DNA of 27,296 nucleotides from the IMG/VR virus record IMGVR_UViG_2531839440_000002; one strand, 5' to 3'. Shown in pieces: positions 4,752 through 27,296 of this stretch. Each line of letters opens with the position of its first letter. Position 1 is the first letter of the stretch. Source of the stretch: a virus (lineage: Duplodnaviria; Heunggongvirae; Uroviricota; Caudoviricetes). The position numbers and the translations under genes are program-made. The notes below the pieces were generated by a model. That model was not told where the DNA came from. It ran no database searches and saw only the letters and a program-made list of their open reading frames with translations.

Positions 4752-4999
4752 ACAGCTCCCCGTTTATTATTTATCTCCTCAGCCAGCCGCTGTGCTTTCA
4801 GGGGATTTCGGATAACAGAAAGGCCGGGAAATACCCAGCCTCGCTTCGTAACGGAGTAGACGAAAGTGATCGTGCCTATAAGTGGCTTCACAACAAAGCA
4901 AAGGTATCCCCTGAACATGTCGGCAGCATTGTTACGGCTACTGGTGGAGTTGTGAAGGCGTACCAGATTCGCCCGGATCTTCCGAAGTTGTTTCCACAC
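4724..4999 (-). CDS. Hypothetical protein; C-terminal part resembles lambda orf60a, N-terminal part differs (possible deletion junction)
   Basis: C-terminal ...TFVYSVTKRGWVFPGLSVIRNPLKAQRLAEEINNKRGAVCTKHLPLS matches my recollection of lambda orf60a; in lambda exo follows, here it does not. Confidence 0.3.
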   Translation of the reverse strand: MWKQLRKIRANLVRLHNSTSSRNNAADMFRGYLCFVVKPLIGTITFVYSVTKRGWVFPGLSVIRNPLKAQRLAEEINNKRGAVCTKHLPLS

Positions 5000-5101: not shown

Positions 5102-5641
5102 ATGCAACCAATTACATACCAACAGACTAGCGGATTTACCCCGACTGCGGTGATAAATCGTTCTCAAACAAAACAGGCGCCAGGCCACGAAAAAATCCGT
5201 GATGCCGTTCGCGCCTGGTCGGCTGCAGATAATCAGGATGTTGTTGCCGCACTCATTGTGAATGAGTATCGGGAGCTGGGCGGCGGCACCATCGATTTCC
5301 CTGATGATGTCAGCCGTGCACGCCAGAAGTTGTTCCGCTTCCTCGATAACAAATTCGATTCTGAAAAATACCGAAATAACGTGCGTGAACTGACCCCGGC
5401 AATTCTGGCGGTACTACCGCTGGAATATCGCGGCCACCTGGTTGAGCAGGATAGCTTCATGGCTCGGCTGGTTGAAATGGAAAAGGAACTCAGTGAGGCA
5501 AAGCAGGCGGTCATTCTCAACGCACCACGCCACCAGAAACTGAAGGAAATGAGTGAAGGTATTGTGTCGATGTTTCGCGTGGACCCGGATCTGGCTGGTC
5601 CATTAATGGCGATGGTTACCACCATGCTGGGGGCAATATGA
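5102..5641 (+). CDS. Hypothetical protein (179 aa) directly upstream of O, in the position cII occupies in lambda
   Basis: ATG at 5102 with AAGGA about 8 nt upstream; stop overlaps an ATG at 5638 (ATGA); no motif recognised. Confidence 0.55.
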   Translation: MQPITYQQTSGFTPTAVINRSQTKQAPGHEKIRDAVRAWSAADNQDVVAALIVNEYRELGGGTIDFPDDVSRARQKLFRFLDNKFDSEKYRNNVRELTPAILAVLPLEYRGHLVEQDSFMARLVEMEKELSEAKQAVILNAPRHQKLKEMSEGIVSMFRVDPDLAGPLMAMVTTMLGAI

Positions 5642-5727
5642 CAGGTTCAGAAATGGCGAAAGTCGGTCTGCGGGAACAGAACCGACTTTCAGGTGCAAAT
5701 CGTAACGCACTCATTACGGGAGGAATT

Positions 5728-6657
5728 ATGGCAAACACTGCTGAGATATTCAATTTTCCAGTGCCGGATGTGGCACAAAAGGAGCCGCGCGTGGCAGATC
5801 TCGATGATGGTTATACGCGCATTGCAAATGAGTTGCTGGAAGTTGTAATGCTGGCCGGATTAACACAGCACCAGCTTCTGGTCTTCCTGGCTGTCATGCG
5901 CAAAACATATGGCTTTAATAAAAAACTGGATTGGGTGAGCAACGAGCAACTTTCCGAGTTAACCGGGATATTGCCGCACAAGTGTTCTGCTGCAAAAAGT
6001 GTTCTGGTAAAGCGTGGGATTTTAATTCAGAGCGGGCGGAATATCGGCATCAATAATGTGGTCAGTGAATGGTCAACATTACCCGAATCAGGTAAGAAAA
6101 ATAAAGTTTACCTGAAAGAGGTAAATTTACCTGAATCAGGTAAGAAAAGTTTACCTAAATCAGGTAAACGCCTTTACCCGAATCAGGTAAACACAAAAGA
6201 CAAACTAACAAAAGACAATATAAAACCTTTTTCGTCAGAGAATTCTGGCGAATCCTCTGACCAGCCAGAAAACGATCTTCCTGTGGTGAAACCGGATGCT
6301 GCAATTCAGAGCGGCAGCAAGTGGGGGACAGCAGAAGACCTGACCGCCGCAGAGTGGATGTTTGACATGGTGAAGACCATCGCGCCATCAGCCAGAAAAC
6401 CGAATTTTGCAGGGTGGGCTAACGATATCCGCCTGATGCGTGAACGTGACGGACGTAACCACCGCGACATGTGTGTACTGTTCCGCTGGGCATGCCAGGA
6501 CAACTTCTGGTCCGGTAACGTGCTGAGTCCGGCCAAACTCCGCGACAAGTGGACCCAGCTCGAAATCAACCGAAACAAGCAACAGGCTGGCGTGACAGCC
6601 GGCAAACCAAAACTCGACCTGACGAACACTGACTGGATTTACGGGGTGGAGCTATGA
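5728..6657 (+). CDS. O: Replication initiator protein O (lambdoid, non-lambda allele) containing ori iterons
   Basis: N-terminus MANTAEIFNF...RVADLDDGYTRIAN aligns with recalled lambda O (MTNTAKILNF...NVADLDDGYARLSN); GGGAGGA SD before ATG 5728; alternative upstream start at 5638; internal iterons and AT-rich tract. Confidence 0.85.
   Translation: MANTAEIFNFPVPDVAQKEPRVADLDDGYTRIANELLEVVMLAGLTQHQLLVFLAVMRKTYGFNKKLDWVSNEQLSELTGILPHKCSAAKSVLVKRGILIQSGRNIGINNVVSEWSTLPESGKKNKVYLKEVNLPESGKKSLPKSGKRLYPNQVNTKDKLTKDNIKPFSSENSGESSDQPENDLPVVKPDAAIQSGSKWGTAEDLTAAEWMFDMVKTIAPSARKPNFAGWANDIRLMRERDGRNHRDMCVLFRWACQDNFWSGNVLSPAKLRDKWTQLEINRNKQQAGVTAGKPKLDLTNTDWIYGVEL
6079..6190. repeat. Origin of replication: five dyad-symmetric iterons (consensus TTACCYGAATCAGGTAA) followed by an AT-rich unwinding tract
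   Basis: Copies at 6079-6095, 6109-6125, 6127-6143, 6151-6167, 6174-6190; each half TTACCTGA is the reverse complement of TCAGGTAA; AT-rich tract 6191-6235; encodes the ESGKK repeats in O. Confidence 0.75.
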
Positions 6658-7355
6658 AAAACATCGCCGCACAGATGGTTAACTTTGACCGTGAGCAGAT
6701 GCGCCGGATCGCCAACAACATGCCGGAACAGTACGACGAAAAGCCGCAGGTACAACAGGTAGCGCAGATCATCAATGGTGTGTTCAGCCAGTTACTGGCA
6801 ACTTTCCCGGCGAGCCTGGCTAACCGGGACCAGAACGAACTGAACGAAATCCGCCGCCAGTGGGTGCTGGCTTTCCGGGAAAACGGGATCACCACAATGG
6901 AACAGGTTAACGCAGGAATGCGCGTAGCCCGTCGGCAGAATCGACCATTCCTGCCATCACCCGGGCAGTTTGTTGCCTGGTGCCGGGAAGAAGCATCCGT
7001 TAACGCCGGGCTGCCAAACGTCAGCGAGCTGGTTGATATGGTCTATGAGTATTGTCGGAAGCGTGGCCTGTATCCGGATGCAGAGTCTTATCCGTGGAAA
7101 TCAAACGCGCACTACTGGCTGGTTACCAACCTGTACCAGAACATGCGGGCCAATGCGCTTACTGATGCGGAATTACGGCGCAAGGCTGCCGATGGACTGA
7201 CTTGTATGACCGCGCGAATTAACCGTGGTGAGGCGATACCTGAACCAGTAAAACAACTTCCTGTCATGGGCGGTAGACCTCTAAATCGTGCACAGGCTCT
7301 GGCGAAGATCGCAGAAATCAAAGCGAAGTTCGGACTGAAAGGAGCAACTGTATGA
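6654..7355 (+). CDS. P: Replication protein P (DnaB helicase loader), lambda-type
   Basis: 233-aa ORF MKNIAAQMVNFDREQMRRIANNMPEQYDEKPQVQQVAQIINGVF..., recalled as near-identical to lambda P; start overlaps O stop. Confidence 0.9.
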   Translation: MKNIAAQMVNFDREQMRRIANNMPEQYDEKPQVQQVAQIINGVFSQLLATFPASLANRDQNELNEIRRQWVLAFRENGITTMEQVNAGMRVARRQNRPFLPSPGQFVAWCREEASVNAGLPNVSELVDMVYEYCRKRGLYPDAESYPWKSNAHYWLVTNLYQNMRANALTDAELRRKAADGLTCMTARINRGEAIPEPVKQLPVMGGRPLNRAQALAKIAEIKAKFGLKGATV

Positions 7356-8003: not shown

Positions 8004-8885
8004 CTACTTGTCTTTTTTAATATGATCAATCTCATCATTAAGACATTTATCTATTTTTTTTATTAACACATTAATTTCTTCGGTGTTTTGGAGTTGAGTT
8101 GTCTTAGAAACAAAAACTCGAATAAAGAATTTAACATAGTGATAGGGTTGAAGTACATCGTTATACTTACATAAATCATTTATTGTATACTTGCCGCCTG
8201 TTTCTTTTTTTATTATTTTAGCTTGACTTGTATCGATATCTTTAAAGTTATCTTCAATCTGAAAATCAAGAACCCATTCATCTTCTTTTAAATTATCCTC
8301 AATGATTTTGTTGATTTTCTTAGATATATTTTGTTTATATTTTTTGTATCTGTTGTCGGAAATGTTAACATTAGAAAACGTGTGTTTTTTTTCATATATT
8401 TTTTTCCAAACATTTCTATCAACAATATCTTGAATTATAGCTTGAGAATTTTTATCTAATGTGTTTTTAAGAGTGTTTTCTAAAAACGTTTTGTCTGGGT
8501 TTTCACGATAAAAGTGTTTGATGGACTCAATGAGAGTGTTTTTAGATTTTAAAGAGACAACATCATCAGTTTTTTTTCTAGAACACGCTTTGTTAAGCAT
8601 CGCAGATAGTGCACGATTGGTCTTATGAAAATAAACTTGACTATAAAGCCCACTTCTTGCATTGGCAAATTCTAGTATTGAATCCATACCACTTTCTTTA
8701 TATGCCAGGTAAACACTATTTTCAACTTTCACAGGAATAAATGACATTAATAATCGTCCATAATCATAAATCCCATATTTAACGCCGGAGAAGTAGCTAT
8801 CTCTAAGTAGGTAGTCCATTCTGTCCGCATCTATAGGTGAAGATGATATGATTGAACCTAATAAAGGATATACATTTACTCCCTC
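8004..8885 (-). pseudogene. HD-domain phosphohydrolase (dGTPase/SAMHD1-like), C-terminal fragment displaced by IS1
   Basis: Frame open from 8885 to stop at 8004; contains DADRMDYLLRDSYFSG motif; in frame with the N-terminal fragment once IS1 and one duplication copy are removed. Confidence 0.75.
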
Positions 8886-8940
8886 GGTGATGCTGCCAAC
8901 TTACTGATTTAGTGTATGATGGTGTTTTTGAGGTGCTCCA

Positions 8941-9216
8941 GTGGCTTCTGTTTCTATCAGCTGTCCCTCCTGTTCAGCTACTGACGGGGTGGTGCGTAAC
9001 GGCAAAAGCACTGCCGGACATCAGCGCTATCTCTGCTCTCACTGCCGTAAAACATGGCAACTGCAGTTCACTTACACCGCTTCTCAACCCGGTACGCACC
9101 AGAAAATCATTGATATGGCCATGAATGGCGTTGGATGCCGGGCAACAGCCCGCATTATGGGCGTTGGCCTCAACACGATTTTACGTCACTTAAAAAACTC
9201 AGGCCGCAGTCGGTAA
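8941..9216 (+). CDS. insA: IS1 InsA
   Basis: 91-aa [43 protein letters not shown]..., GTG start. Confidence 0.9.
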
Positions 9217-9638
9217 CCTCGCGCATACAGCCGGGCAGTGACGTCATCGTCTGCGCGGAAATGGACGAACAGTGGGGCTATGTCGGGGCTAAATCGCGCC
9301 AGCGCTGGCTGTTTTACGCGTATGACAGGCTCCGGAAGACGGTTGTTGCGCACGTATTCGGTGAACGCACTATGGCGACGCTGGGGCGTCTTATGAGCCT
9401 GCTGTCACCCTTTGACGTGGTGATATGGATGACGGATGGCTGGCCGCTGTATGAATCCCGCCTGAAGGGAAAGCTGCACGTAATCAGCAAGCGATATACG
9501 CAGCGAATTGAGCGGCATAACCTGAATCTGAGGCAGCACCTGGCACGGCTGGGACGGAAGTCGCTGTCGTTCTCAAAATCGGTGGAGCTGCATGACAAAG
9601 TCATCGGGCATTATCTGAACATAAAACACTATCAATAA
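9135..9638 (+). CDS. insB: IS1 InsB reading frame (transposase made as InsAB' by frameshifting)
   Basis: 167-aa ORF ...[44 protein letters not shown]...; overlaps insA. Confidence 0.85.
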
Positions 9639-9653
9639 GTTGGAGTCATTACC

Positions 9654-10328
9654 TACTCCCTCAATGTTATTTTTAAAATCATATCTTTTATCAACAATTT
9701 TTATAATGCTTTCTGGATTAATAGCCGCTATGTTTTCTTTATAGACATCGTCGTCATTTGATTTATCTTGGGCTTCATTTTTTAATTCTTCAATAATTTC
9801 TTTAATAAAAATACATGATACTTGTTCGTGGGTTAACTTGTCATTATCACTTAAAGATATAATCTTATCGTATTGTTTATTTCCTTCAGTTTTGCATTTT
9901 TCTTTGAAATCTTTTACGGATATTGCAAAACTATCGAATTGGTGGGCAAGTGGGCCATGCCCAACATCGTGTAACAATGCTGCAATACGTAACTCCTGTA
10001 TAAGACTTGAAGGCATTTTTTTTATATCTAAATATAGATCAATGCCCATATTTTTTCGATTGTAAATTAGTGCATTTAAATCAATATTTTTTAATATTTC
10101 ATACGATAAATGCATTACACCGACAGAGTGTTCAAAGCGAGAGTGCATTGCAGAAGGAAATACTTTATATAGAAACGTGTTCTGCCTGATATCTCGTAGT
10201 CGTTGGAATAAAGGATGGTCAATTATCTTTTTTTCTAGCTTAGTTATTCGAATCACTCCATGTATGGGATCTAAAAACTTCCCCAGAAGTAAGTCTTCAA
10301 AGTTCTCAAGTTTGTTTTTGTTTGTCAT
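9654..10328 (-). pseudogene. HD-domain phosphohydrolase (dGTPase/SAMHD1-like), N-terminal fragment interrupted by IS1
   Basis: ATG at 10326-10328; 225 codons up to the IS1 boundary; motifs HSRFEHSVGVMHLS and LLHDVGHGPLAH; the listed ORF 9573-10328 reads 26 codons into IS1 before stopping. Confidence 0.75.
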
Positions 10329-10687: not shown

Positions 10688-12190
10688 TTAAATTGCATCT
10701 GCAAACTCTGGGATTTTTCGCTCAAGTATGATTGATGAGTTGCTGTTGTCGCTTTTTTTATTTTCATGATTACGAATAGCCAATGACTCATTAAAGTCTT
10801 TTGCGACTGCTGTCTCAATAAATTCAATTTCTGAATCAGAGTGTTTTTTAACAGCTTCTTTGATCTCATCCAGAGTAACATAGAAAAACTCTTTTCTACG
10901 ATTTACAAGATTGACTCTCTTTTTATCGAAGACATCATGTAGTTCTTTTTCTAATGATGGAGCGTCCTCCGAATAAATCATGGCATGCACATCAAAAATA
11001 AAAGGAACAGATGCATCACCAAGCTCATTTACACGGTCTTGTGGATCAAGACGTCGTGTCATGCCTATTTTATAAACATTCTCCCCAAAAGAACCTATGT
11101 TCGAAATAATATAAACATGACCTTGTTTGGTTTGTTGTGCCATGGATAATGCTCTTTGATGCTTTGATTCAGCCTGCGACAAACTCTGTTCTAGTTCGGC
11201 AATGCGATTTTCGAGGCGCTGCTTCATGTCACCAGTAACTTTTTCCATTTCCTTTCTTGCAGCTTCAATTGCTTTTTTATAACGGCGCTCTTCTGCCTCT
11301 GCGTCTTGCATGGCCTTTTCTATTTCTCGTTGTGCACGCTCCTCCTCTCTCATTTGTGCCCTTATTTCTGCCTGTTCTTCTTTTTCTTTCTGTTTTTGCT
11401 CACGATATTCATGGGTAAGCCACAACTCCTCAAGTTTTTTATTAAGGTATTTAGTATTTATATATATGTGATTTTGCTCGTTTAGTTTATTTATGGCCTC
11501 AAATGCCTTTGTGATGCGTTCTTCCATTTTAGTGATATTTTTCCACGTGCAATTACTAATTGCAGCATCACATTCATTATTAAATGCTCTAGTAGTTAGC
11601 CTAATATTTCTGTCTGTCATTTTTTTACCCTCTGCTCGAGAGCCTTCAACAGTCCATTGGGTTGTGCAATATACTGCACCAGAGTGGGTTTTATCCCGCA
11701 GCATTAATTTCTGTTCATCCCTGATGGATTTTATTTTGTTTTTAAATTGCTCTGAATCTTCAAAATTAAAATGAGGTTCGTAAAATCCTAGTTCGGCTAG
11801 TTCAACATCTTCTGAATAAATAGAAATTTGCTTTACTAACTTATCATATATTTCTTTCTTCTCTTTATAAGTTCTTCTTAGTTCTTGGATTTGTTTATTG
11901 ATACCATCCATTTTTTCAATGGTGTTTGTTAGTTCATTATTGGCATTTTCTTTTACTTTTTGGGACTCTTCTTTTATAATGGAGCATTCTTGCTCTGTTT
12001 TCTCAATAAGCTTCTTACATTCCTCTTCCATATTAAAATAATCTGCAAAGCGAGATTTGTATTCTTCATTTTTTTGATTGCTATCACTTAATTCTAATTG
12101 TATTTTTTTGATGCGTTTGATTGCAGCTATATATAGAACAAGAACAACCAATAAAAATATGATTGCAAGTAATAGTGGAGTTTGAGTCAT
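10688..12190 (-). CDS. Membrane-anchored coiled-coil protein with DUF4041-like central region and C-terminal T5orf172 (GIY-YIG-like) domain; candidate defence protein
   Basis: 500 aa; N-terminal helix PLLLAIIFLLVVLVLYIAAI; long K/E-rich heptad segments; C-terminal GHVYIISNIGSFGENVYKIGMTRRLDPQDRVNELGDASVPFIFDVHAMIY...; AT-rich. Confidence 0.8.
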   Translation of the reverse strand: MTQTPLLLAIIFLLVVLVLYIAAIKRIKKIQLELSDSNQKNEEYKSRFADYFNMEEECKKLIEKTEQECSIIKEESQKVKENANNELTNTIEKMDGINKQIQELRRTYKEKKEIYDKLVKQISIYSEDVELAELGFYEPHFNFEDSEQFKNKIKSIRDEQKLMLRDKTHSGAVYCTTQWTVEGSRAEGKKMTDRNIRLTTRAFNNECDAAISNCTWKNITKMEERITKAFEAINKLNEQNHIYINTKYLNKKLEELWLTHEYREQKQKEKEEQAEIRAQMREEERAQREIEKAMQDAEAEERRYKKAIEAARKEMEKVTGDMKQRLENRIAELEQSLSQAESKHQRALSMAQQTKQGHVYIISNIGSFGENVYKIGMTRRLDPQDRVNELGDASVPFIFDVHAMIYSEDAPSLEKELHDVFDKKRVNLVNRRKEFFYVTLDEIKEAVKKHSDSEIEFIETAVAKDFNESLAIRNHENKKSDNSNSSIILERKIPEFADAI

Positions 12191-14106: not shown

Positions 14107-14484
14107 ATGCGTGATATTCAGATGGTTCTTGAGCGTTGGGGAGCGTGGGCGGCTAATAATCATGAAGATGTGACCTGGTCGTCCATTGCCGCCGGTTTTA
14201 AGGGATTAATTCCTTCAAAAGTAAAATCTCGCCCACAATGTTGTGACGATGACGCGATGATCATTTGCGGGTGCATGGCCCGTCTGAAAAAGAACAACAG
14301 CGATTTGCATGATTTATTGGTGGACTATTATGTCGGCGGCATGACTTTTATGGCGCTTGCACGTAAGCATGGGCGATCTGATTGTTGGGTTGGCAGGATG
14401 CTCCAGAAAGCTGAGGGCGTAGTGGAGGGTATGCTGATGGTGTTGGATCTCCGATTGGAGATGGATGCTGATTGTTCGAAATAA
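14107..14484 (+). CDS. Late-gene antiterminator Q (phage 82 / DLP12 QuuD-type)
   Basis: ATG at 14107 preceded by GGAG; [36 protein letters not shown]...; the ORF-track start at 14092 is a TTG. Confidence 0.75.
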
Positions 14485-14584
14485 TTAAAGGAAAAGTTGC
14501 TGTCTGATTCTCATTAGTCTAACATTTTAAATGTTGGAATCGCAACGTAGTTATTATCATATAACAGCTTGTTTCCTGATTTAG

Positions 14585-14611
14585 CCAGCCTCCCCAAAGG
14601 CTGGTTTTTTT
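14585..14611 (+). terminator. Rho-independent terminator about 100 nt after Q (tR'-like)
   Basis: Stem CCAGCCT / AGGCTGG, loop CCCCAA, followed by a run of seven T on the + strand. Confidence 0.5.
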
Positions 14612-14639
14612 CTAATAAGTATTATTTCGGGTAGGGATT

Positions 14640-15111
14640 TTATTGTTTAACCCATAATAATTCATTGACATTGAATCCCAACTTTTGAGCGGTTCGCACA
14701 TAGTCTGCTTTTACTTTATCTGGAATAGTTGGGGTCCTTGCCAGAATCCATAGGTATTCTCTGTTCGGACCACTGACAAGAGCATACTTATACTCATCAT
14801 CCAGTTTGATTACATTATAGCCACCATAGAAGGGGCCAAAAAACGAAACCTTCAACGCTGCAGTTTTAGTATCTCCAGTAAAGTATGCTTTACCTTCGCT
14901 CTCGCTCCATTTATTTTTCGTTGGATCGTATCCACGGTTAAGTACACGAATCCCTCCGTCGTTCCGTTTTCCATAAGTAGCGCTGACCTGTTCCAGACCA
15001 CGTTCGAATCGGTTCTCGAGGCGAGCTATTTCATACCACTTTCCGAGGTAGCGGTTGGCGTCAAAATTTGTAATCGGCTGCACACCTTTAGGTGGTGTCG
15101 GGACCTTACAT
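14640..15111 (-). pseudogene. Blc-type bacterial lipocalin, main body separated from its start and signal peptide by an IS66-family insertion
   Basis: NFDANRYLGKWYEIARLENRFERGLEQVSATY...KVSFFGPFYGGYNVI matches recalled Blc; the reported TTG start at 15120-15122 lies inside the IS terminal repeat. Confidence 0.8.
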
Positions 15112-15141
15112 GTAAGCGTCAACGGAGCACCGTATTGACGC

Positions 15142-16754
15142 TTATTTATTGGTGAGTACTACGTTCCATGGCAGGAGTTCGTCAACACGGTTGGAGGGCC
15201 ATTCCGGCAGTACGCTCAGAATATGGCGCAGATACGCTTCCGGATCGATACCGTTCAGACGGCAGGTGCCGATCAGCCCGTACAGCAGTGCTCCACGCTC
15301 GCCGCCGTGATCGCTACCGAAGAACACGTAATTTTTCTTTCCGAGACAGACTGCACGAAGCGCTCTTTCCGCTGTGTTATTGTCCACCTCCGCCAGACCG
15401 TCATCACTGTAATAACAGAGGGCGTCCCACTGATTCAGTACATAGCTGAACGCTTCACCCAGTCTGGATTTTTTCGACAGCGTGCCATTCTTCTCCACCA
15501 TCCATTCATGCAGCGACGTCAGTAACGCTTTGCTTCGCTGCTGCCTGGCTGCAAGACGCTCTGACTCTGGTAATCCCCGTATTTCATCCTCGATGGCGTA
15601 CAGTTCACTGATTCGCTTCAGGGCTTCTTCTGCCGTCGCACTTTTGCTGCTGATGTATACATCGTGGATTTTTCTCCGGGCATGAGCCCAGCACGCAACT
15701 TCTGTCAGCGCACTACCTTCACGTTCTGCACTGAACAGCCTGTCATAACCTGTGAACGCATCCGCCTGCAGGATACCCCGGAAGGGGCGGAGGTGTTGCT
15801 CCGGGTGTTTCCCCTGCCGGTTCGATGAGTACGCGAACCAGACCGCCGGAGGAGATGACGAACCCGCATTGCGATCATCCCGGACATACGTCCAGATGCG
15901 CCCTGTTTTCGTCTTTTTCAGGCCCGGTGCCAGTACCTTTACCGGTGTGTCGTCAGTGTGAAGCTTGCGGGTATTCATCACATAACGGTACAGGGCATCA
16001 TTCAGCGGCGTCATTAACTGGCAGCACGCGTCAACCCAGTTGGAGAGTAATGCACGGCTCAGTTCGACACCCTGTCGGGCAAAGATTTCACTCTGACGAT
16101 ACAGTGGCAGGTGTTCGCAGTATTTTCCCGTTAACACGCGGGCAAGTAATCCGGGGCCCGCGATACCACGCTCTATCGGGCGGGACGGCGCCGGTGCTTC
16201 AACGATGCAGTCACATTTTGTACAGGCTTTTTTACCCGTTCTGTGCGGATCACTTTCAGGGCGCTGCTCACCAGTTCCAGTTGTTCTGCGCTGACTTCCC
16301 CCAGATAATCCAGCTCACCGCCACACTCCGGGCAACAGCTTTCTTCAGGCTCCAGGCGGTATATTTCACGGGGAAGGTGTGCCGGTAACGGACGACGATG
16401 GCGCGACTGTCGCAACTGGCGGGGAACCAGCGGGTCATCCTCACGCCCACTGTAACGATCGCTTTCCTGCTCGCGTTGTTTCAGCAGGGCTTCAGCCTGT
16501 TCAACCTCACGACGCAGTTTTTCAGAACGGGTTCCGAACAGCATCCGGCGCAGTTTTTCTATCTGAGCCCGCAGATGCTCTATTTCTCGCTCATCTTCTT
16601 CGATCTTTTCTTCGGCACGTGCCAGTGCAGAGCGCAGGAAGGCCTCCGTCTCTTCAACCAGACTCAGTTGCTGGTCTTTCTGACGGAGGGCTTCAGCCTG
16701 CTCAGAGAGCAGCCTTTCCAGCTCAGCGATGCGAATGAGGTATTTCTGACTCAT
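15142..16754 (-). pseudogene. IS66-family transposase TnpC, split into two reading frames by a frameshift
   Basis: N-terminal ORF 16173-16754 (coiled-coil plus CxxC zinc-finger region) and C-terminal ORF 15142-16137 (DDE region); span length 1613 is not a multiple of 3. Confidence 0.75.
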
Positions 16755-16784
16755 GGCCGTTTTTATAATCCGGCCCGGCGTTTT

Positions 16785-17135
16785 TTACAACATTGTCAGT
16801 GCGTTAAGGCGGGATGTTTTTGGCTGACGCCAGTCCAGCTTATCGAGGAGCATTGCCAGTTGCGAGCGGGTAATGGATATCTTACCGTCACGCACCGCAG
16901 GCCAGATAAACTGACCTTCCTCAAGGCGTTTGGTGAACAGGCACAGACCATCAGCATCAGCCCACAGGATTTTAATCGTGTCTCCCCGTCGGCCACGGAA
17001 GATAAACAGGTGACCGGAGAAGGGGTTATCATCCAGCACATGCTGTATCTGCTCCCCCAGACCGTTGAAGGATTTACGCATATCAGTAACGCCGGCAACG
17101 AGCCAGATACGGGTACCTGATGGGAGTGAAATCAT
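16785..17135 (-). CDS. IS66-family TnpB (orf2)
   Basis: 116-aa ORF MISLPSGTRIWLVAGVTDMRKSFNGLGEQIQHVLDDNPFSGHLFIFRGRRGDTIKILWAD... Confidence 0.85.
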   Translation of the reverse strand: MISLPSGTRIWLVAGVTDMRKSFNGLGEQIQHVLDDNPFSGHLFIFRGRRGDTIKILWADADGLCLFTKRLEEGQFIWPAVRDGKISITRSQLAMLLDKLDWRQPKTSRLNALTML

Positions 17136-17566
17136 CGTCCCCTCCCGGTCAGCTCACGGATCAACACCGTGAGCAGCTCTGGTGAAGGATTTTCCAGCAT
17201 CATTTTACCGTAATGGAATTCCGCATGGCAGGAAGCTGCACAAGCAACTGATAATGCCTCCGGAGCAGGAGCATCTGTAGCACAGCGCGGGGTGTCGATA
17301 AGTTCCACTGGAACCAGAGTCGGAGAGGCCGGAAAAGATTGTGATACTGTAGGGCCTACAATAGTTGGAGGCATTCTACGGGAAATACGTCCTTCTCTTT
17401 GCCAGAGGCGTAGCCATTTAAAAATCAGGTTGTTATCAACGCCATGTTCCCGGGCCAGTTGTGCAACATTGGCATTTGGTTTCGAAGCCAGTTCAACCAT
17501 ATGAAGTTTAAATTCATTAGAAAATATCCGGCGGGTTCCGGAGCGCCAGTCTGTAGGTTTATCCAT
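17132..17566 (-). CDS. IS66-family TnpA (orf1)
   Basis: ATG at 17564-17566 (track start 17569 is TTG); MDKPTDWRSGTRRIFSNEFKLHMVELASKPNANVAQLAREHGV...; overlaps tnpB start. Confidence 0.8.
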   Translation of the reverse strand: MDKPTDWRSGTRRIFSNEFKLHMVELASKPNANVAQLAREHGVDNNLIFKWLRLWQREGRISRRMPPTIVGPTVSQSFPASPTLVPVELIDTPRCATDAPAPEALSVACAASCHAEFHYGKMMLENPSPELLTVLIRELTGRGR

Positions 17567-17651
17567 CAATAGAACTCCGTCTAATTTAGAAGGAGCTCTA
17601 ATTTAGTCTGCAAGGAGCAGGTGTTACAGACGGCATTGGCTTTACGCTTAC

Positions 17652-17712
17652 CCTTACATGCTATAAGAGTGAAAGAGAGTGCAATGCCAGTCAACACAGG
17701 CCATAACTTCAT
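17652..17712 (-). pseudogene. N-terminal fragment of the lipocalin gene (signal peptide with lipobox), cut off by the IS66-family insertion
   Basis: ATG at 17710-17712; MKLWPVLTGIALSFTLIAC then runs into the duplication; joined to 15111 downwards gives ...LIACKVPTPPKG... in frame. Confidence 0.55.
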
Positions 17713-17904
17713 AATAAATCCTGTACTTTTGATAGTTGAGAGTAAGTATGAAAGATAGATGATTACGACCGATCACTTAAAGAACTTTCATACTATATTA
17801 GGAATAGTCCATAACAGAAAAATTGTCAGTGATGACGCCAGAAAGGCAATTTATTCCGTGCACTACACAGTTTATGTGTTAATGAATTAGTCAAGGGGGA
17901 GGAT

Positions 17905-18864
17905 ATGATAAAAAAACCTGTGATTGGAATCAGCGGTTGTCTGGCCGGTTCTGCTGTTCGTTTTGATGGTGGTCACAAAAGAGCTGACTTTTTAATGGAC
18001 AAATTAGTGGAATGGGTAACATTCAGACCAGTATGTCCGGAAATGGCTATAGGGCTGCCAGTTCCGCGTCCTGCTCTACGTCTTGTGCGCTCGACGCAAG
18101 GAAATATACGGATGTGTTTCAGCCACGACCAGAATGAGGATGTGACAGAGAGAATGACAGAGTTTAGTCGTTCTTATATGGACAAATTAAAGGATGTATC
18201 GGGGTTTGTGGTTTGTGCTAAATCTCCCAGCTGTGGCATGGAGCGCGTGCGTGTCTATGATGAAAATGGTAATCGAGGTCGTAAAGATGGAGTGGGACTA
18301 TTTACGAGCACTTTGATGGAAAAGTTTTCCTGGCTACCGGTTGAAGAGGATGGGCGATTACATGATCCAGTGCTTCGTGAGAATTTTGTTGAAAGAGTTT
18401 TTGCTTTGCATGAGCTCAATCACCTTTACAAGGAGAAATTATCAAGAAGAGAGTTATTAGCTTTTCATAGTCGTTATAAGCTTCAGTTGTTGGCGCATAG
18501 TCAGGCAGGCTATAAAGATATGGGACCATTTGTGGCTGCAATACACGAGTGGGCGGACCTTGAATCATACTTTGAGGTGTATCGTGATAAGCTGATGGCG
18601 ATTCTCAGAAAACCTGCATCACGTAAAAATCACACGAATGTGCTGATGCATATACAGGGGTATTTTAGTAACTACTTAAGTACACGCCAGCGTAAAGAGT
18701 TGAGCGAGGTTATACTTAACTATCGTTCTGGCACATTACCTCTTCTTGCGCCGTTGACTCTGCTGAAGCATTATCTGGGTGAGTATCCTAATGATTACTT
18801 GCTTACACAGAATTACTTCGATCCCTATCCGGACGAACTGGCTCTAAGACTGATGGTAAATTAA
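17905..18864 (+). CDS. DUF523 (TudS-like) / DUF1722 fusion protein
   Basis: 319-aa ORF; N-terminus MIKKPVIGISGCLAGSAVRFDGG with further conserved Cys (RPVCPE, CAKSPSCG) resembles DUF523; C-terminal half resembles DUF1722; GGGGGAGG SD upstream. Confidence 0.65.
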   Translation: MIKKPVIGISGCLAGSAVRFDGGHKRADFLMDKLVEWVTFRPVCPEMAIGLPVPRPALRLVRSTQGNIRMCFSHDQNEDVTERMTEFSRSYMDKLKDVSGFVVCAKSPSCGMERVRVYDENGNRGRKDGVGLFTSTLMEKFSWLPVEEDGRLHDPVLRENFVERVFALHELNHLYKEKLSRRELLAFHSRYKLQLLAHSQAGYKDMGPFVAAIHEWADLESYFEVYRDKLMAILRKPASRKNHTNVLMHIQGYFSNYLSTRQRKELSEVILNYRSGTLPLLAPLTLLKHYLGEYPNDYLLTQNYFDPYPDELALRLMVN

Positions 18865-19020
18865 TTGTATGCGATATCATCCAAAAGGATGAGTTCCTGC
18901 ATGCAGGATATTTACAATCGTAAAAACTACACTATGATACCCAGAGTGTCAGTTTGTATAAAAACTCTGTTTACGCTGAAGAAACCATTGAGATGCAACT
19001 TAAAGTTGGTGTATTTGCCC

Positions 19021-19926
19021 CTATATTTCCAGACACCTGTTATCACTTAACCCATTACTGGCCCGCTGCCGTAGATATTCCCGTGGCGAGCGATAACCCA
19101 GTGCACTATGCGGATGCCATTCGTTATAATGCTCGAACGCCTCTGCAAGATTCTTTGCTGCCGTTAACCCGTCTGGTTTGGGCATGATACTGATGTAATC
19201 ACGCTTTATCGTTTTCACGAAGCTCTCTGCTATGCCGTTACTCTCCGGACTCCGCACCGCCGTGTTCTTCGGTTCAAGTCCCAACATCCGAGCGAACTGG
19301 CGTGTTTCATTAGCCCGGTAGCATGAACCATTATCCGTCAGCCACTCCACTGGAGATGTCGGAAGCTCGCTGCCGAAGCGGCGTTCCACCGCTCCCAGCA
19401 TGACGTCCTGTACTGTTTCACTGTCGAAGCCGCCCGTAGTGACCGCCCAGTGCAGTGCCTCACGGTCACAGCAGTCCAGCGCGAACGTGACTCGCAGTTT
19501 TTCTCCGTTATCACAGCGGAACTCGAACCCGTCAGAGCACCATCGTTGATTGCTTTCTTTCACGGCCACTTTGCCAGTATGTGCCCGTTTCGATGGCGGT
19601 ACAGCGGTTTTTCGCTCAAGCAACAGCGCATTCTGGCGCATGATCCGGTAAACACGTTTGGCATTGATAGCAGGCATACCATCAAGTTCGGCCTGTCTGC
19701 GAAGCAGCGCCCATACCCGACGATAACCATACGTGGGCAGCTCTCCGATAACATGGTGTATACGGAGAAGCACATCCGTATCATCTGAGTGACGGCTGCG
19801 GCGACCATCTTTCCAGTCATCGGTTCGTCTGAGAATGACGTGCAACTGCGCACGCGACACCCGGAGACAACGGCTGACTAAGCTTACTCCCCATCCCCGG
19901 GCAATAAGGGCGCGTGCGCTATCCAC
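19021..19926 (-). CDS. insD: IS2 transposase OrfB
   Basis: 301-aa ORF with DDE-type region ...WCSDGFEF...DNGSCY... Confidence 0.9.
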
Positions 19927-20249
19927 TTTTTTGCACGCCCGTATTCAACGGCTTCTTTAAGGAGTTCATTTTCCATCGTTTTTTTGCCGAGCAGGCGCTG
20001 GAGTTCTTTAATCTGCTTCATGGCAGCAGCAAGTTCAGAGGCAGGAACGACCTGCTCTCCTGCGGCCACAGCAGTAAGACTTCCCTCCTGGTATTGCTTG
20101 CGCCAGAGAAATAACTGGCTGGCTGCCACACCGTGTTGCCGGGCAACAAGGGAGACCGTCATTCCCGGTTCAAAGCTCTGCTGAACAATAGCGATCTTTT
20201 CCTGTGTAGTACGCCGTCTGCGTTTCTCCGGCCCTAAGACATCAATCAT
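19884..20249 (-). CDS. insC: IS2 OrfA (helix-turn-helix)
   Basis: 121 aa from [47 protein letters not shown]...; the track ORF begins 15 codons upstream. Confidence 0.85.
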
Positions 20250-20551
20250 CTGTTCTCCAATGACTAGTCTAAAAACTAGTATTAAGACTATCACTTATTT
20301 AAGTGATATTGATTGTCTGGAGATTCAGGGGGCCAGTCTAGTTGGTAAACATGCCAGTCAAAATATATAATATTATGATTCCACGCAGCTATATATAATA
20401 TAACAGATTGGTTTAATAATTTGTCTTTGTGAGTTAAATACATAATTTTATACTTGTGATGCAATGAGATTTTCCTTATTGTTGAACTGGCGAATATTGA
20501 TTTTCCACCTATACTTACCTGGTGTAACCCCAATGATATCAGGTGGATAAT

Positions 20552-21277
20552 ATGCCATACATATGTTCTATCATTTTGGTGTTGAACTCGTTTGATGTCC
20601 GAATTGGTAAAGAAGATATTTTATTTAAAAAAGGAAGTGCTGTTCTCATTGATTACAATTTAAAAGATTTTTTTTCATCAAATATAGATCATGCAATGAT
20701 CGTAGATGTTGAAGAGAAAACAGTTAATGATTTCTTTAAAAGCAACACACTCTCACCTTTTTCTGTAAGAAGGTTTTATCCGGCATACTTGATGGTGGAA
20801 TGTGAAGATTTTTCATTGTTAAAGAACTTGATTGCATGCTTGAATTGTGATGGCAGAACTGTGGATTTTGTTAGAAATCAAATATCACTTGCATGTCTTG
20901 CTATCTTATCTTCAGAGAAAATAGTGCAAAGTTTTTTATTTGGATGTCTTAATAGTTTAGGAAGTAAAGTTAAGGCTATTATTCACACGGATATATCTGC
21001 AGCATGGAGACTTTGTGATATATCTTCAAGACTGTATCTGAGTGAAAGTCTGTTAAAAAGAAAATTAAAGCACGAAGGCTTATCATTTAGTAAGTTAATT
21101 CTTGAAGAGCGAATGGTGATGGCGGAAAGGTTATTAAGCTACAATTTATATTCTGTTGGAAAAGTTACTGAGATATGCGGTTATGAAAACACGTCATATT
21201 TTGTAAGTGTTTTCAGAAGATATTTTGGTGTTCCTCCCCATCAATATTCATCAAGATTTTTTTTAGAAAAGACATGA
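20552..21277 (+). CDS. AraC/XylS-family transcriptional regulator (prophage cargo)
   Basis: C-terminal helix-turn-helix region ...KVTEICGYENTSYFVSVFRRYFGVPPHQY typical of AraC family; AT-rich; ATG at 20552 after AGGTGG (track start 20543 is GTG). Confidence 0.75.
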   Translation: MPYICSIILVLNSFDVRIGKEDILFKKGSAVLIDYNLKDFFSSNIDHAMIVDVEEKTVNDFFKSNTLSPFSVRRFYPAYLMVECEDFSLLKNLIACLNCDGRTVDFVRNQISLACLAILSSEKIVQSFLFGCLNSLGSKVKAIIHTDISAAWRLCDISSRLYLSESLLKRKLKHEGLSFSKLILEERMVMAERLLSYNLYSVGKVTEICGYENTSYFVSVFRRYFGVPPHQYSSRFFLEKT

Positions 21278-21343
21278 TGTAACGTGATGCGTTTTAATGA
21301 TTTTGTAATTTTCGTATTTGATAATTGTATGATGCTTTCAGCT

Positions 21344-21375
21344 ACGCCAGAATAATCGCTGGCGTTTTTCTTTTT
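21344..21375 (+). terminator. Rho-independent terminator after the AraC-family gene
   Basis: Stem CGCCAG / CTGGCG, loop AATAATCG, followed by TTTTTCTTTTT. Confidence 0.45.
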
Positions 21376-21470
21376 GAATAGATGTTCAAGCCTTACGCTA
21401 ATGTAACTTCTATACCTTTCCTCTTCGTTCCGAACCGTGTACACCATCCGTTATTTGCGGAGGTGAGGCT

Positions 21471-21686
21471 ATGAAATCCATGGATAAGTTAACAACGGGT
21501 GTCGCCTATGGCACCTCAGCAGGTAGTGCCGGTTACTGGTTTTTACAGCTGCTCGATAAAGTCACGCCCTCACAGTGGGCAGCAATAGGTGTGCTGGGTA
21601 GCCTGGTATTTGGCCTGCTGACGTACCTGACAAACCTTTATTTCAAGATTAAAGAAGATAAGCGCAAGGCTGCGAGAGGTGAATAA
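21471..21686 (+). CDS. Class II holin / pinholin (phage 21 S21-type) with dual-start motif MKSM
   Basis: 71 aa [26 protein letters not shown]...; two TM segments; GGAGGTGAGG SD; resembles recalled S21/EssD. Confidence 0.85.
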
Positions 21687-22183
21687 TGCCTCCATCATTA
21701 CGAAAAGCCGTTGCTGCTGCTATTGGTGGCGGGGCTATTGCTATAGCATCTGTGCTAATCACTGGCCCAAGTGGTAACGATGGTCTGGAGGGTGTGAGAC
21801 ATAATCCTTACAAAGACATAGTTGGTGTATGGACTGTATGTTACGGGCATACAGGAAAAGACATCATTCCTGGTAAAACGTATACCGAAGCAGAGTGCAA
21901 AGCCCTCCTGAATAAAGACCTTGCCACTGTCGCCAGACAAATTAACCCGTACATCAAAGTCGATATACCGGAAACAACGCGCGGCGCTCTTTACTCGTTC
22001 GTCTACAACGTGGGTGCTGGCAATTTCAGAACATCGACGCTTCTTCGCAAAATAAACCAGGGTGATATTAAAGGCGCATGTGATCAGCTACGGCGCTGGA
22101 CATACGCTGGCGGTAATCAATGGAAAGGACTGATGACTCGCCGTGAGATTGAGCGTGAAGTCTGTTTGTGGGGGAAACAATGA
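21686..22183 (+). CDS. Endolysin (lysozyme), SAR-endolysin type
   Basis: 165 aa; N-terminal [18 protein letters not shown] signal-anchor-release-like segment; catalytic region ...[23 protein letters not shown]...; start overlaps holin stop (TAATG). Confidence 0.85.
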
Positions 22184-22638
22184 GCAGAGTAACCGCGATT
22201 ATCTCCGCTCTGGTTATCTGCATCATCGTCTGCCTGTCATTGGCTGTTAATCATTACCGTGATAACGCAATCGCCTACAAGGAGCAGCGCGATAACAAGG
22301 CCAGTGAACTGGAGAAGGCGAACGCCACCATCGCTGACATGCGGAAGCGTCAACGTGATGTAGCAGAACTCGACGCAAGATACACAAAGGAGCTTGCTGA
22401 TGCTAACGCGACTATCGAAAGTCTCCGTGCTGATGTTTCTGCTGGGCGTAAGCGCCTGCAAGTCGCCGCCACCTGTGCAAAGTCAACGACCGGAGCCAGC
22501 GGCATGGGCGATGGAGAAAGCCCAGGACTTACAGCAGATGCTGAACTCAATTATTACCGTCTCCGAAGTGGAATCGACAAGATAACCGCGCAGGTTAACT
22601 ACCTGCAGGAATACATCAGGACGCAATGCCTGAAATAA
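22180..22638 (+). CDS. Rz-type inner-membrane spanin subunit
   Basis: ATG at 22180 overlaps endolysin stop; N-terminal [20 protein letters not shown] then coiled-coil. Confidence 0.8.
22394..22585 (+). CDS. Rz1-type outer-membrane lipoprotein spanin subunit, embedded in Rz in the +1 frame
   Basis: Lipobox LGVSAC followed by proline-rich [13 protein letters not shown]; exact start Met uncertain. Confidence 0.6.
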
Positions 22639-25278: not shown

Positions 25279-26712
25279 ATGGAAGTCAACAAAAAGCAGC
25301 TGGCTGACATTTTCGGCGCGAGTATCCGTACCATTCAGAACTGGCAGGAGCAGGGAATGCCCGTTCTGCGGGGTGGTGGGAAGGGTAATGAGGTGCTTTA
25401 TGATTCTGCCGCCGTCATAAAATGGTATGCCGAAAGGGATGCTGAAATTGAGAACGAAAAGCTGCGCCGGGAAGTTGAAGAACTGCGGCAGGCCAGCGAG
25501 ACAGATCTCCAGCTACCTTCTGCCCGTAAGGTGAATGGTAAGGCGCTTTCAGCGGATATAACACTGACACCGAAAGATATTGGTACGCTTAACTCAACAA
25601 CTATGTCATTCAGCGGTGGTGCTGGTTGGTTCAAATTAGCAACGGTAACCATGCCGCAGGCGAGTTCTGTTGTTTCAATTACGTTGATTGGTGGGGCTGG
25701 ATATAACGTCGGTTCACCTCAACAGGCAGGTATATCTGAACTTGTTTTGCGTGCAGGTAATGGTAATCCGAAGGGGATTACTGGTGCTTTATGGCAGCGC
25801 ACATCGGCAGGGTTTACAAATTTTGCCTGGGTCAATACATCTGGTGATACTTACGATATTTACGTTGCAATCGGAAATTATGCGACTGGTGTAAATATTC
25901 AATGGGATTATACCAGTAATGCCAGCGTAACGATTCATACGTCACCAGCATATTCTGCTAATAAGCCGGAAGGGTTAACGGACGGTACAGTTTATTCACT
26001 CTATACGCCATCAGAGCAGTTTTATCCGCCTGGCGCACCAATCCCGTGGCCATCGGATACCGTTCCGTCTGGTTATGCCCTGATGCAGGGGCAGACTTTT
26101 GACAAATCTGCCTACCCGAAACTTGCAGTCGCTTATCCGTCAGGCGTGATCCCTGATATGCGTGGCTGGACGATTAAGGGCAAGCCCGCCAGTGGTCGTG
26201 CCGTATTGTCTCAGGAGCAGGACGGCATTAAATCGCACACCCACAGCGCCAGCGCATCCAGTACGGATTTGGGTACGAAAACCACATCGTCGTTTGATTA
26301 CGGCACTAAATCCACGAATAACACCGGGGCGCATACGCACAGTCTGAGCGGCTCTACAAGCTCGGCCGGAGCACACTCGCACGTTGATGGTCGCAGGTTT
26401 AATACAAGCACTTTTAAAGACACCTATCAGTATGGTTCTACAGCTGTCGGAAGTAACTCATACCAGGTACAAGGGGTGGTTGGTCTGGGCATTGGCACGA
26501 TGGCGAATACGAACTCTGCTGGCGCGCATACCCACTCACTGTCCGGCACTGCTGCAAGCGCAGGTGCACACGCACATACTGTCGGTATTGGTGCACACAC
26601 GCACTCCGTTGCGATTGGTTCACATGGACACACCATCACCGTTAACGCTGCTGGTAACGCGGAAAACACCGTCAAAAACATCGCATTTAACTATATTGTG
26701 AGGCTTGCATAA
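25279..26712 (+). pseudogene. In-frame fusion of terminase small subunit Nu1 N-terminus (about 78 aa) to the C-terminal about 400 aa of side tail fiber Stf; deletion scar
   Basis: N-terminus [74 protein letters not shown] matches recalled lambda Nu1; junction near 25513; C-terminus has tail-fiber HxH repeats and ends [11 protein letters not shown] before tfa. Confidence 0.75.
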
Positions 26713-27296
26713 TGGCATTCAGAATGAGTGAACAACCACGGACCATAAAAATTTATAATCTGCTGGCCGGAACTAATGAATTTATTGGTGAAGGTGACGC
26801 ATATATTCCGCCTCATACAGGTCTGCCAGCAAACAGTACCGATATTGCACCGCCAGATATTCCGGCTGGCTTTGTGGCTGTTTTCAACAGTGATGAGGCA
26901 TCGTGGCATCTCGTTGAAGATCATCGGGGAAAAACCGTCTATGACGTGGCTTCCGGCGACGCGTTATTTATTTCTGAACTTGGCTCGTTACCGGAAAATG
27001 TCACCTGGTTATCGCCGGAAGGGGAATATCAGAAGTAGAACGGCACAGCCTGGGTGAAGGATACGGAAGCAGAAAAACTGTTCCGGAGCCGGGAGGCGGA
27101 AGAAACAAAAAACAGCCTGATGCAGGTAGCCAGTGAGCATATAGCGCCACTTCAGGATGCTGTAGATCTGGAGATCGCAACGGAGGAAGAAACCTCATTG
27201 CTGGAAGCCTGGAAAAAATATCGGGTGTTGCTGAACCGTGTTAATACAACAACTGCACCGGATATTGAATGGCCAACAGTACCCATTATCGAATAG
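26712..27296 (+). pseudogene. tfa: Tail fiber assembly protein Tfa with in-frame amber codon at 27036-27038
   Basis: [37 protein letters not shown]... then ...[22 protein letters not shown]... continuing in the same frame to a stop at 27294-27296; lambda Tfa has Trp at that position (recall). Confidence 0.75.

Follow-up and report, generated by a model that had tools for sequence, protein, structure and literature searches.

What fills the long interval between the antiterminator gene Q and the lysis genes in the virus record IMGVR_UViG_2531839440_000002 of IMG/VR (Caudoviricetes; a DNA stretch of 27,296 nucleotides, the whole of which is called the window here), where did these genes come from, and were they once switched on with late transcription? 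An initial annotation based on the sequence alone had described about 7 kb of non-phage genes, namely, those for a Blc-type lipocalin, a DUF523/DUF1722 protein, and an AraC-type regulator, accompanied by an IS66-family element and an IS2 element. It regarded the place as a lambdoid site for Q-controlled accessory genes (morons) and proposed a past induction with late transcription. According to our analysis, the window represents a defective lambdoid prophage of the DLP12-like type, integrated next to ybhC at the attachment site of lambda. With a probability of about 0.8, the interval in this prophage is an accessory slot that carries a standard allele in the form of a 3.1-kb three-gene cassette, enlarged by insertion sequences (ISs), with cargo functions as proposed below. 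The cassette is real but ordinary, being a common and already catalogued phage accessory cassette. Its components (RudS_vir, Blc-like lipocalins, PatE/PsrA-type regulators, ISEc47, and IS2) and this type of slot are already known; we found no paper on the three-gene cassette as a unit or on its chromosomal origin.

The interval from the Q stop codon (position 14484) to the start of the holin gene essD (position 21471) measures 6986 bp (14485-21470), and all of the genes and elements named above were confirmed by Pfam and NCBIfam matches and by insertion junctions (Table 1). The DUF523/DUF1722 gene is referred to as rudS hereafter. With both ISs removed, the cargo is 3102 bp long and has a G+C content of 38%, compared with 48-52% in the flanking phage genes; the two ISs enlarge the cassette from 3.1 to 7 kb. 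The size of the IS-free cargo, the antisense orientation and disruption of the lipocalin gene, and a frameshift in the IS66-family transposase gene are points beyond the initial annotation.

The distribution of the cassette indicates that these genes are recurrent phage cargo. RudS relatives were found on 127 IMG/VR stretches, the best 80 of which were examined as loci. The gene order Q (+), lipocalin (-), rudS (+), araC (+), essD (+), and rrrD (+) was found in 74 of these best 80, while one or more cassette genes were absent within the fetched locus in the other six. The span from Q to essD was 3102-3146 bp in most of them. The complete IS-free cassette was also present in 12 isolated phage genomes, always between Q and the holin gene, with identities of 98% for IdasGreatGrand and 90% for 1H12 and the Lambda_ev series. 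Among 5426 complete E. coli genomes, 1156 have the cassette (999 of them with a coverage of at least 80%), almost always on the chromosome, and at least two prophage backgrounds were recognized, namely, the att-lambda site and a Qin-like prophage with ydfU/cspI. Each of the three cargo proteins has a full-length match to a PHROG family of its own. These occurrences in isolated phages, IMG/VR loci, and PHROG families show that the cassette is phage cargo rather than host backbone, such that the designation as non-phage genes was misleading. Low G+C content, the presence of ISs, bacterial-type functions, and chromosomal homologs in other Enterobacteriaceae might suggest that the cargo genes are host backbone or a separate island abutting prophage remnants. 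However, isolated complete phages and two prophage backgrounds all have the cassette in the Q-to-holin interval, and the chromosomal homologs have only ~70% DNA identity, limited to the coding parts, and reside in non-phage contexts of other genera. This explanation is already refuted by the isolated-phage and IMG/VR occurrences, and we give it practically no credence. The cassette (Q, lipocalin, rudS, regulator, essD, and rrrD) was also observed with 99.9% DNA identity on two contigs (JARKOR010000151.1 and JARKOR010000135.1) of a metagenome-assembled genome labeled 'Candidatus Nanosynbacter sp.', where it is almost certainly a binning contaminant.

Comparison with the same interval in other lambdoid prophages, as the initial annotation had proposed, revealed that the cassette alternates with a porin gene. 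In DLP12 of strain K-12 and in phages such as ev243, the slot holds a porin gene, likewise on the minus strand. Homology to DLP12/ev243 ends 18 nt before the Q stop codon and restarts 11 nt before the essD start codon; the exchanged unit therefore corresponds to 14467-21459 of the window. This replacement of the cassette by a porin gene among homologous phages, together with sharp borders and deviant G+C content, is characteristic of morons and supports the description of the Q-to-lysis interval as a lambdoid accessory slot. The nmpC/lc-type porin cassette (DLP12, PA-2, and ev243) occupies the same slot and also has its first cargo gene antisense to late transcription, and nmpC in K-12 has been hit by an IS as well (IS5). 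However, the porin cassette consists of one porin gene without sense-strand cargo, whereas the slot in the window has lipocalin, rudS, and regulator genes. In Stx-converting lambdoid phages, stxAB lies between Q with pR'-tR' and the holin gene as accessory genes of the same interval, with sense-strand expression coupled to Q antitermination (PMC8065619). Compared with the stxAB slot, the present one has no toxin genes, its first gene is antisense, and its Q dependence is only predicted. Furthermore, the Stx-phage interval has tRNA genes, whereas no tRNA genes or known RNA families were found within the present interval.

Table 1. Features of the window, given as positions in the 27,296-nucleotide stretch.
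Feature	Position	Strand	Evidence or remarks
ybhC	1-1284	-	Next to the lambda attachment site
Integrase and excisionase genes	1419-2685
YdaT, O, and P genes	5102-7355		Followed by a low-G+C insert
ybcN, ninE, ybcO, rusA, Q			In this order, right of the low-G+C insert
Q antiterminator, 125 amino acids, DLP12 QuuD/82-type	14107-14484	+	PF06530 full-length, E=2.5e-51; phrog_79; TOK-001 annotation
tR'-like intrinsic terminator	14583-14613	+	9-bp GC-rich stem (14583-14606) plus U7; terminator scan
Mature-domain (3') portion of the Blc-like outer-membrane lipocalin gene, pseudogene	14640-15111	-	PF08212, E=5.5e-44; NCBIfam Blc subfamily
8-bp target duplication CCTTACAT of the IS66-family element	15104-15111 and 17652-17659
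ISEc47-like IS66-family element	15112-17651	-	2540 bp; ends GTAAGCG...CGCTTAC; junctions compared with uninterrupted TOK-001; Pfam IS66 domains
IS66-family genes tnpA, tnpB, and frameshifted tnpC	17132-17569 (tnpA), 16785-17135 (tnpB), 15142-16754 (tnpC)	-
Lipocalin 5' fragment, signal peptide MKLWPVLTGIALSFTLIAC-K with lipobox LIAC	17652-17712	-	Translation compared with the TOK-001 protein
rudS, TudS/DUF523 + DUF1722 fusion, 319 amino acids, intact	17905-18864	+	PF04463 and PF08349
5-bp target duplication GTTGG of IS2	19005-19009 and 20341-20345
IS2 (IS3 family), 1331 bp	19010-20340	-	Between rudS and the regulator gene; HTH_Tnp_1/rve open reading frames; junctions compared with TOK-001
Promoter-like site TTGGTA-18-TATAAT	20342-20371	+	Upstream of the regulator gene; consensus scan, 10/12 matches
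AraC/XylS-family regulator, 241 amino acids, intact open reading frame, 32% G+C	20552-21277	+	PF12833/PF00165
Second intrinsic terminator, in the gap between regulator and holin genes	21344-21375	+	Terminator scan; fold -11.5 kcal/mol, z=-1.9
Lysis genes essD (holin), rrrD, rzpD	21471-21686 (essD), 21686-22183 (rrrD), 22168-22638 (rzpD)	+	Right slot border; open reading frames; annotation of TOK-001, 042, and K-12
KilA-N, ybcV, and ylcI genes			Right of essD, rrrD, and rzpD
Nu1::tail-fibre fusion open reading frame	25279-26712	+	With the tail-fibre assembly gene, forms the end of the window

The lipocalin gene is the one cargo gene that has been destroyed. Its product matches the NCBIfam Blc subfamily model NF007786 with 296.8 bits (cut-off 267). 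E. coli Blc (b4149) shares 60% identity with it; both belong to Lipocalin_2, and intact copies have the lipobox cysteine. Nevertheless, the cassette gene is a paralog and not the chromosomal blc, and the copy in the window is interrupted by an IS. Codons 1-20 (ending in LIAC-K) stand apart from the remainder because the ISEc47-like element is inserted exactly at the lipobox. Excision of this element in silico restored the 174-amino-acid lipocalin found in E. coli TOK-001. Copies that are intact, with signal peptide and lipobox cysteine, are present in TOK-001 and in the phages but not in the window. Because the insertion at the lipobox abolishes both export and the gene itself, the lipocalin is a pseudogene here. 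In all of the 80 IMG/VR loci examined, as in the window, the lipocalin gene runs opposite to late transcription.

The IS66-family element has 99.7% identity to copies of ISEc47 (2541 bp). A frameshift breaks its tnpC into parts of 193 and 331 amino acids, compared with 538 amino acids when intact; for this reason, this copy is probably not autonomous. The IS2 copy has 96% identity to annotated IS2 and ends 211 nt before the start codon of the regulator gene. Neither the IS66-family nor the IS2 junction was found in any of the 5426 complete E. coli genomes. Among the matches to the source configuration, the only one with at least 80% coverage, in TW10573, was an artifact in which the cassette had been joined with nearby unrelated IS copies. 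An IS2 insertion in common with E. coli 042 was also rejected, as the IS2 of that strain lies inside the regulator gene, at a different site. Independent insertions of IS2, IS1, IS3, and ISSen4 were observed elsewhere in the same cassette of other strains, E. coli 042 among them. It appears that ISs have repeatedly targeted the AT-rich cassette.

The second cargo gene, rudS, is intact. In its product, PF04463 covers residues 7-149 (E=3.1e-40) and PF08349 covers residues 192-309 (E=1.9e-40), and the N-terminal part matches the TudS structure 6Z92. RudS proteins consist of a TudS [4Fe-4S] desulfidase fused to DUF1722 and strip sulfur from 4-thiouridine (s4U) in tRNA (Jamontas et al., NAR 2024, PMC11417400). 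The product of the window gene is identical to gp66 of phage 1H12 (RudS_vir) at 298 of 319 residues (93%), and the two have the same length and TudS + DUF1722 architecture; the gene for RudS_vir resides in the same cassette. Cys12, Cys44, and Cys110 bind the [4Fe-4S] cluster in RudS_vir and RudS_ST (Table 1 of PMC11417400), and all three are present in the protein from the window as Cys12 (SGC), Cys44 (VCPE), and Cys110 (SPSCG). Every RudS variant tested decreased s4U of tRNA in E. coli (PMC11417400). Consistent with these similarities, the product of rudS is a predicted tRNA 4-thiouridine desulfidase. Bacterial RudS proteins (P. putida PP_0741 and Salmonella STM1389/ORF319) have the same architecture, but their genes usually adjoin those for MerR/LitR-type light regulators and photolyases, whereas the phage copy lies downstream of Q and is not accompanied by a regulator of this type. 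Overexpression of P. putida RudS shortened the growth delay induced by ultraviolet A (UVA) (PMC11417400). E. coli has been said to have no RudS (PMC11417400); in contrast, about one-fifth of the complete E. coli genomes have a prophage-borne rudS. In E. coli B strains, the cassette is damaged: IS3 interrupts rudS in REL606, and no more than the lipocalin gene and a 5' fragment of rudS has been retained in BL21(DE3). The latter strain was the host in the UVA experiment of the RudS paper (PMC11417400). Directly 3' of rudS, the segment 18865-18960 (+) has a predicted RNA fold of -29.1 kcal/mol (z=-4.3, with none of 200 shuffles as good) and no U tract.

Chromosomal relatives of the lipocalin and rudS genes point to the likely source of the pair. 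Among 62 chromosomal loci, 43 have a divergent lipocalin gene upstream of the RudS gene, with 77-82% identity for the lipocalin and 66-77% for RudS. The taxa involved are Enterobacter, Leclercia, Citrobacter, Klebsiella, Raoultella, and relatives. The order in E. cloacae is lipocalin (-), MerR/MlrA-like (+), transthyretin-like (+), and RudS (+), and in C. sedlakii the lipocalin and RudS genes are directly adjacent, with a gap of 188 nt compared with 192 nt in the phage. The divergent orientation in the chromosomal loci of Enterobacter, Leclercia, Citrobacter, and Klebsiella is thus the same as in the phage, but these loci differ in having a non-phage context, MerR-type and transthyretin-like genes, and no AraC-type gene. 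Identity between the phage and chromosomal pairs is ~70% at the DNA level and confined to coding parts, with no detectable intergenic homology. This limited similarity suggests that the capture is old and rules out a recent transfer from an enterobacterial chromosome. The absence of an AraC homolog from the chromosomal loci suggests that the regulator joined separately. Judging from these sequence comparisons, a chromosomal gene pair of Enterobacteriaceae is the likely source of the phage lipocalin-rudS pair.

The third cargo gene encodes an AraC-type regulator with a C-terminal double helix-turn-helix (PF12833 at residues 161-237, E=1e-13, plus PF00165). Its best NCBIfam match, to YdeO (124 bits; cut-off 348), and the match to GadX (83 bits; cut-off 500) are both below the cut-offs; by sequence, it is a related paralog and not YdeO or GadX themselves. 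The protein matches phrog_1450 with E=1e-105 and has 53% identity over the full length to ECs_0287, an AraC-type gene product of the Sakai prophage Sp1, and 47% to PsrA (ECs_1087). All homologs from the protein search are apparently from E. coli. PatE (Z0321), PsrA (Z1789/ECs1087), and PsrB of O157:H7 are likewise small, prophage-borne AraC/XylS proteins that resemble YdeO/GadX, and the PsrA gene is also located downstream of a Q gene, in the Sakai prophage Sp4. The regulator in the window differs from PatE and PsrA in about half of its residues, in forming a separate sequence cluster, and in its neighboring genes. PatE, PsrA, and PsrB serve as activators of gadE/hdeA and as repressors of type III secretion (review, PMC10877973), and by analogy the cassette regulator may act on acid-resistance genes of the host. 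Alternatively, this protein could be the local regulator of the cassette and stand in for the chromosomal MerR-type regulator. Wherever the contig is long enough, the phage cassette has its gene together with lipocalin-rudS, the chromosomal loci have a MerR/MlrA-like gene that the phage cassette lacks, and AraC-family proteins often control neighboring genes. However, the closest characterized relatives (PatE, PsrA/PsrB, YdeO, and GadX) act on gadE/hdeA, and relatives reside in prophages without lipocalin or rudS genes (Sp1 and Sp4). We therefore regard local regulation as unlikely and favor an action on host genes.

How the cassette was transcribed is the next question. The slot allele is a rigid cassette with the order Q 3' end, terminator, antisense lipocalin, sense rudS, sense regulator, terminator, and holin gene. 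The counterpart of Q in TOK-001 belongs to a 100%-identical locus and is annotated as antiterminator Q. The first terminator, which we infer to be tR', begins 99 nt past the Q stop codon, has a fold of -14.9 kcal/mol (z=-3.6), and is invariant across four cassette copies; read on the minus strand, its hairpin has no U tract. A consensus scan between Q and this terminator gave no convincing site for a late promoter. As pR' candidates, a hand-picked TTGCTG-17-TAACAT pair at 14497-14525 and a site that overlaps a 9-nt block ATATAACAG also present in DLP12 were rejected as too weak. The number of promoter-like hexamers was not higher than expected by chance, with 16 seen and 12.6 ± 3.0 expected from shuffled sequence. 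Since the junction of the cassette with the essD start leaves no conserved sequence for a shared late promoter, late transcription would start near Q and cross the cassette, as we infer from the homology breaks and the lambdoid architecture. In an intact phage, Q-modified RNA polymerase would pass the terminator at 14583, cross the lipocalin gene in antisense, transcribe rudS and the regulator gene in sense, and continue over the terminator at 21344 into the genes for lysis and morphogenesis.

This route bears on the suggestion that the three cargo genes were all morons under Q control and were induced along with the late operon. The position of the cassette between Q with its terminator and the holin gene, the need for the late transcript to cross it given that homology resumes so close to essD with no shared promoter there, and the co-orientation of rudS and the regulator gene with the late operon all argue for such control. 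However, the lipocalin gene is on the opposite strand in all 80 loci, as is the porin gene in DLP12/ev243; the regulator gene is flanked by its own promoter-like site and terminator; and PatE and PsrA, which are relatives of its product, are active in lysogens without induction, with Z0321 being RpoS-dependent. Joint induction of all three genes thus appears doubtful to us. In intact phages, sense transcription driven by Q is expected for rudS and the regulator gene but not for the antisense lipocalin gene, and even for the regulator gene, which is co-oriented, the promoter-like site and terminator make Q-independent expression equally plausible. The sequence of this promoter-like site is also present in the uninterrupted TOK-001 locus, and because its -35 hexamer overlaps the target duplication of IS2, the site has been retained. 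Under our preferred reading, the lipocalin and the regulator would more likely be conversion genes expressed in the lysogen from AT-rich promoters of their own, as suggested by these comparisons.

For RudS, the proposed role is desulfuration of 4-thiouridine at position 8 of tRNA, which would reduce the near-ultraviolet (near-UV) cross-linking of tRNA that stalls translation; this UVA rationale was taken from PMC11417400. A more speculative extension, to which we assign a low probability, is that the cassette is a 'sunlight and stomach' stress package in which rudS, as the first sense gene behind the Q terminator, protects late translation under UV. If true, UV would both induce the prophage and cross-link tRNA 4-thiouridine, and the same exposure would yield an s4U eraser that saves late protein synthesis and burst size. 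The phage would then benefit in its lytic phase from removing a modification of host tRNA.

Several points weigh against the functions proposed here and against Q control. pR' and a Q-binding site were looked for near Q and not located, with only weak hexamer pairs seen. Among the enzymes tested, RudS_vir was well expressed but desulfidated tRNA the least (PMC11417400), which suggests that s4U of tRNA may not be the sole or best substrate. The equation of ECs_0287 with PatE/Z0321 of CP-933H is putative, being based on prophage correspondence. With ~50% identity to PatE and PsrA, the targets of the regulator are a guess. Fully autonomous expression would also be compatible with the terminator ahead of the holin gene and with the promoter-like site that precedes the regulator gene.

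As to significance, about one-fifth of complete E. coli genomes carry this fixed three-gene cassette on lambdoid prophages, including a published s4U eraser, and the cassette also supplies an uncharacterized paralog of the acid-resistance/virulence regulators PatE and PsrA. Overall, the importance of the finding is limited, and the copy in the window is a decaying remnant with one dead gene, two ISs, and loss of the regulatory head and virion genes. The closest complete genome is that of E. coli TOK-001, with 100% identity across most shared segments; its locus differs by other IS insertions and one further deletion. The E. coli 042 sister prophage has exo, bet, gam, the cI repressor gene, pR, and the start of cro, none of which is left in the window; all head and tail genes are absent from the window as well. 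With cI/pR, the cro start, and the virion genes gone, neither a normal pR-to-Q cascade nor particles are to be expected, and Q-dependent induction is at best historical in this prophage. Possibly, rudS and the regulator gene are the sole remaining intact genes here that are useful or domesticated.

The underlying deletion relative to the 042 prophage is 5.2 kb long and has taken away exo, bet, gam, kil, a HipA-like pair, cI, pR, and the cro 5' end. TOK-001 has the same junction plus a further deletion from cro to ybcN; the window positions concerned are about 4873-4906 and 12838. The common junction and the extra deletion in TOK-001 show stepwise decay within one prophage lineage.

A gene at 10688-12190 (-), within the low-G+C insert (33-37%) that separates ybcN from the replication genes, encodes a 500-amino-acid DUF4041/T5orf172 protein with a full-length match to the PD-Lambda-1 anti-phage defence model (E=1.5e-198); the E. 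coli 042 prophage has other genes in place of this insert. Given this defence gene elsewhere in the same prophage, and because prophage accessory slots often hold defence genes, the cassette itself might be taken as a module for anti-phage defence or superinfection exclusion. This is very improbable, as none of the three cargo proteins has a PADLOC match and one of them is of a type with demonstrated tRNA-modification activity (PMC11417400). An HD-domain protein encoded at 8004-10328 (-) is split by IS1 (8886 to about 9653; the right end is approximate) into an N-terminal part at 9573-10328, with a weak dGTPase-like PADLOC match, and a C-terminal HD_assoc_2 part at 8004-8819. This gene may be another inactivated defence gene.

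At the right end of the window, the Nu1::tail-fibre fusion is one 477-amino-acid open reading frame that joins the N-terminal 78 residues of Nu1 (terminase small subunit) to tail-fibre collar and repeat domains. It is a deletion scar at which all head and tail genes have been lost, as in DLP12 (nohD-tfaD). The adjoining tail-fibre assembly gene contains a full-length match to the Rfam family IS009 (RF02111) at 27055-27253 (+), with 220.8 bits.

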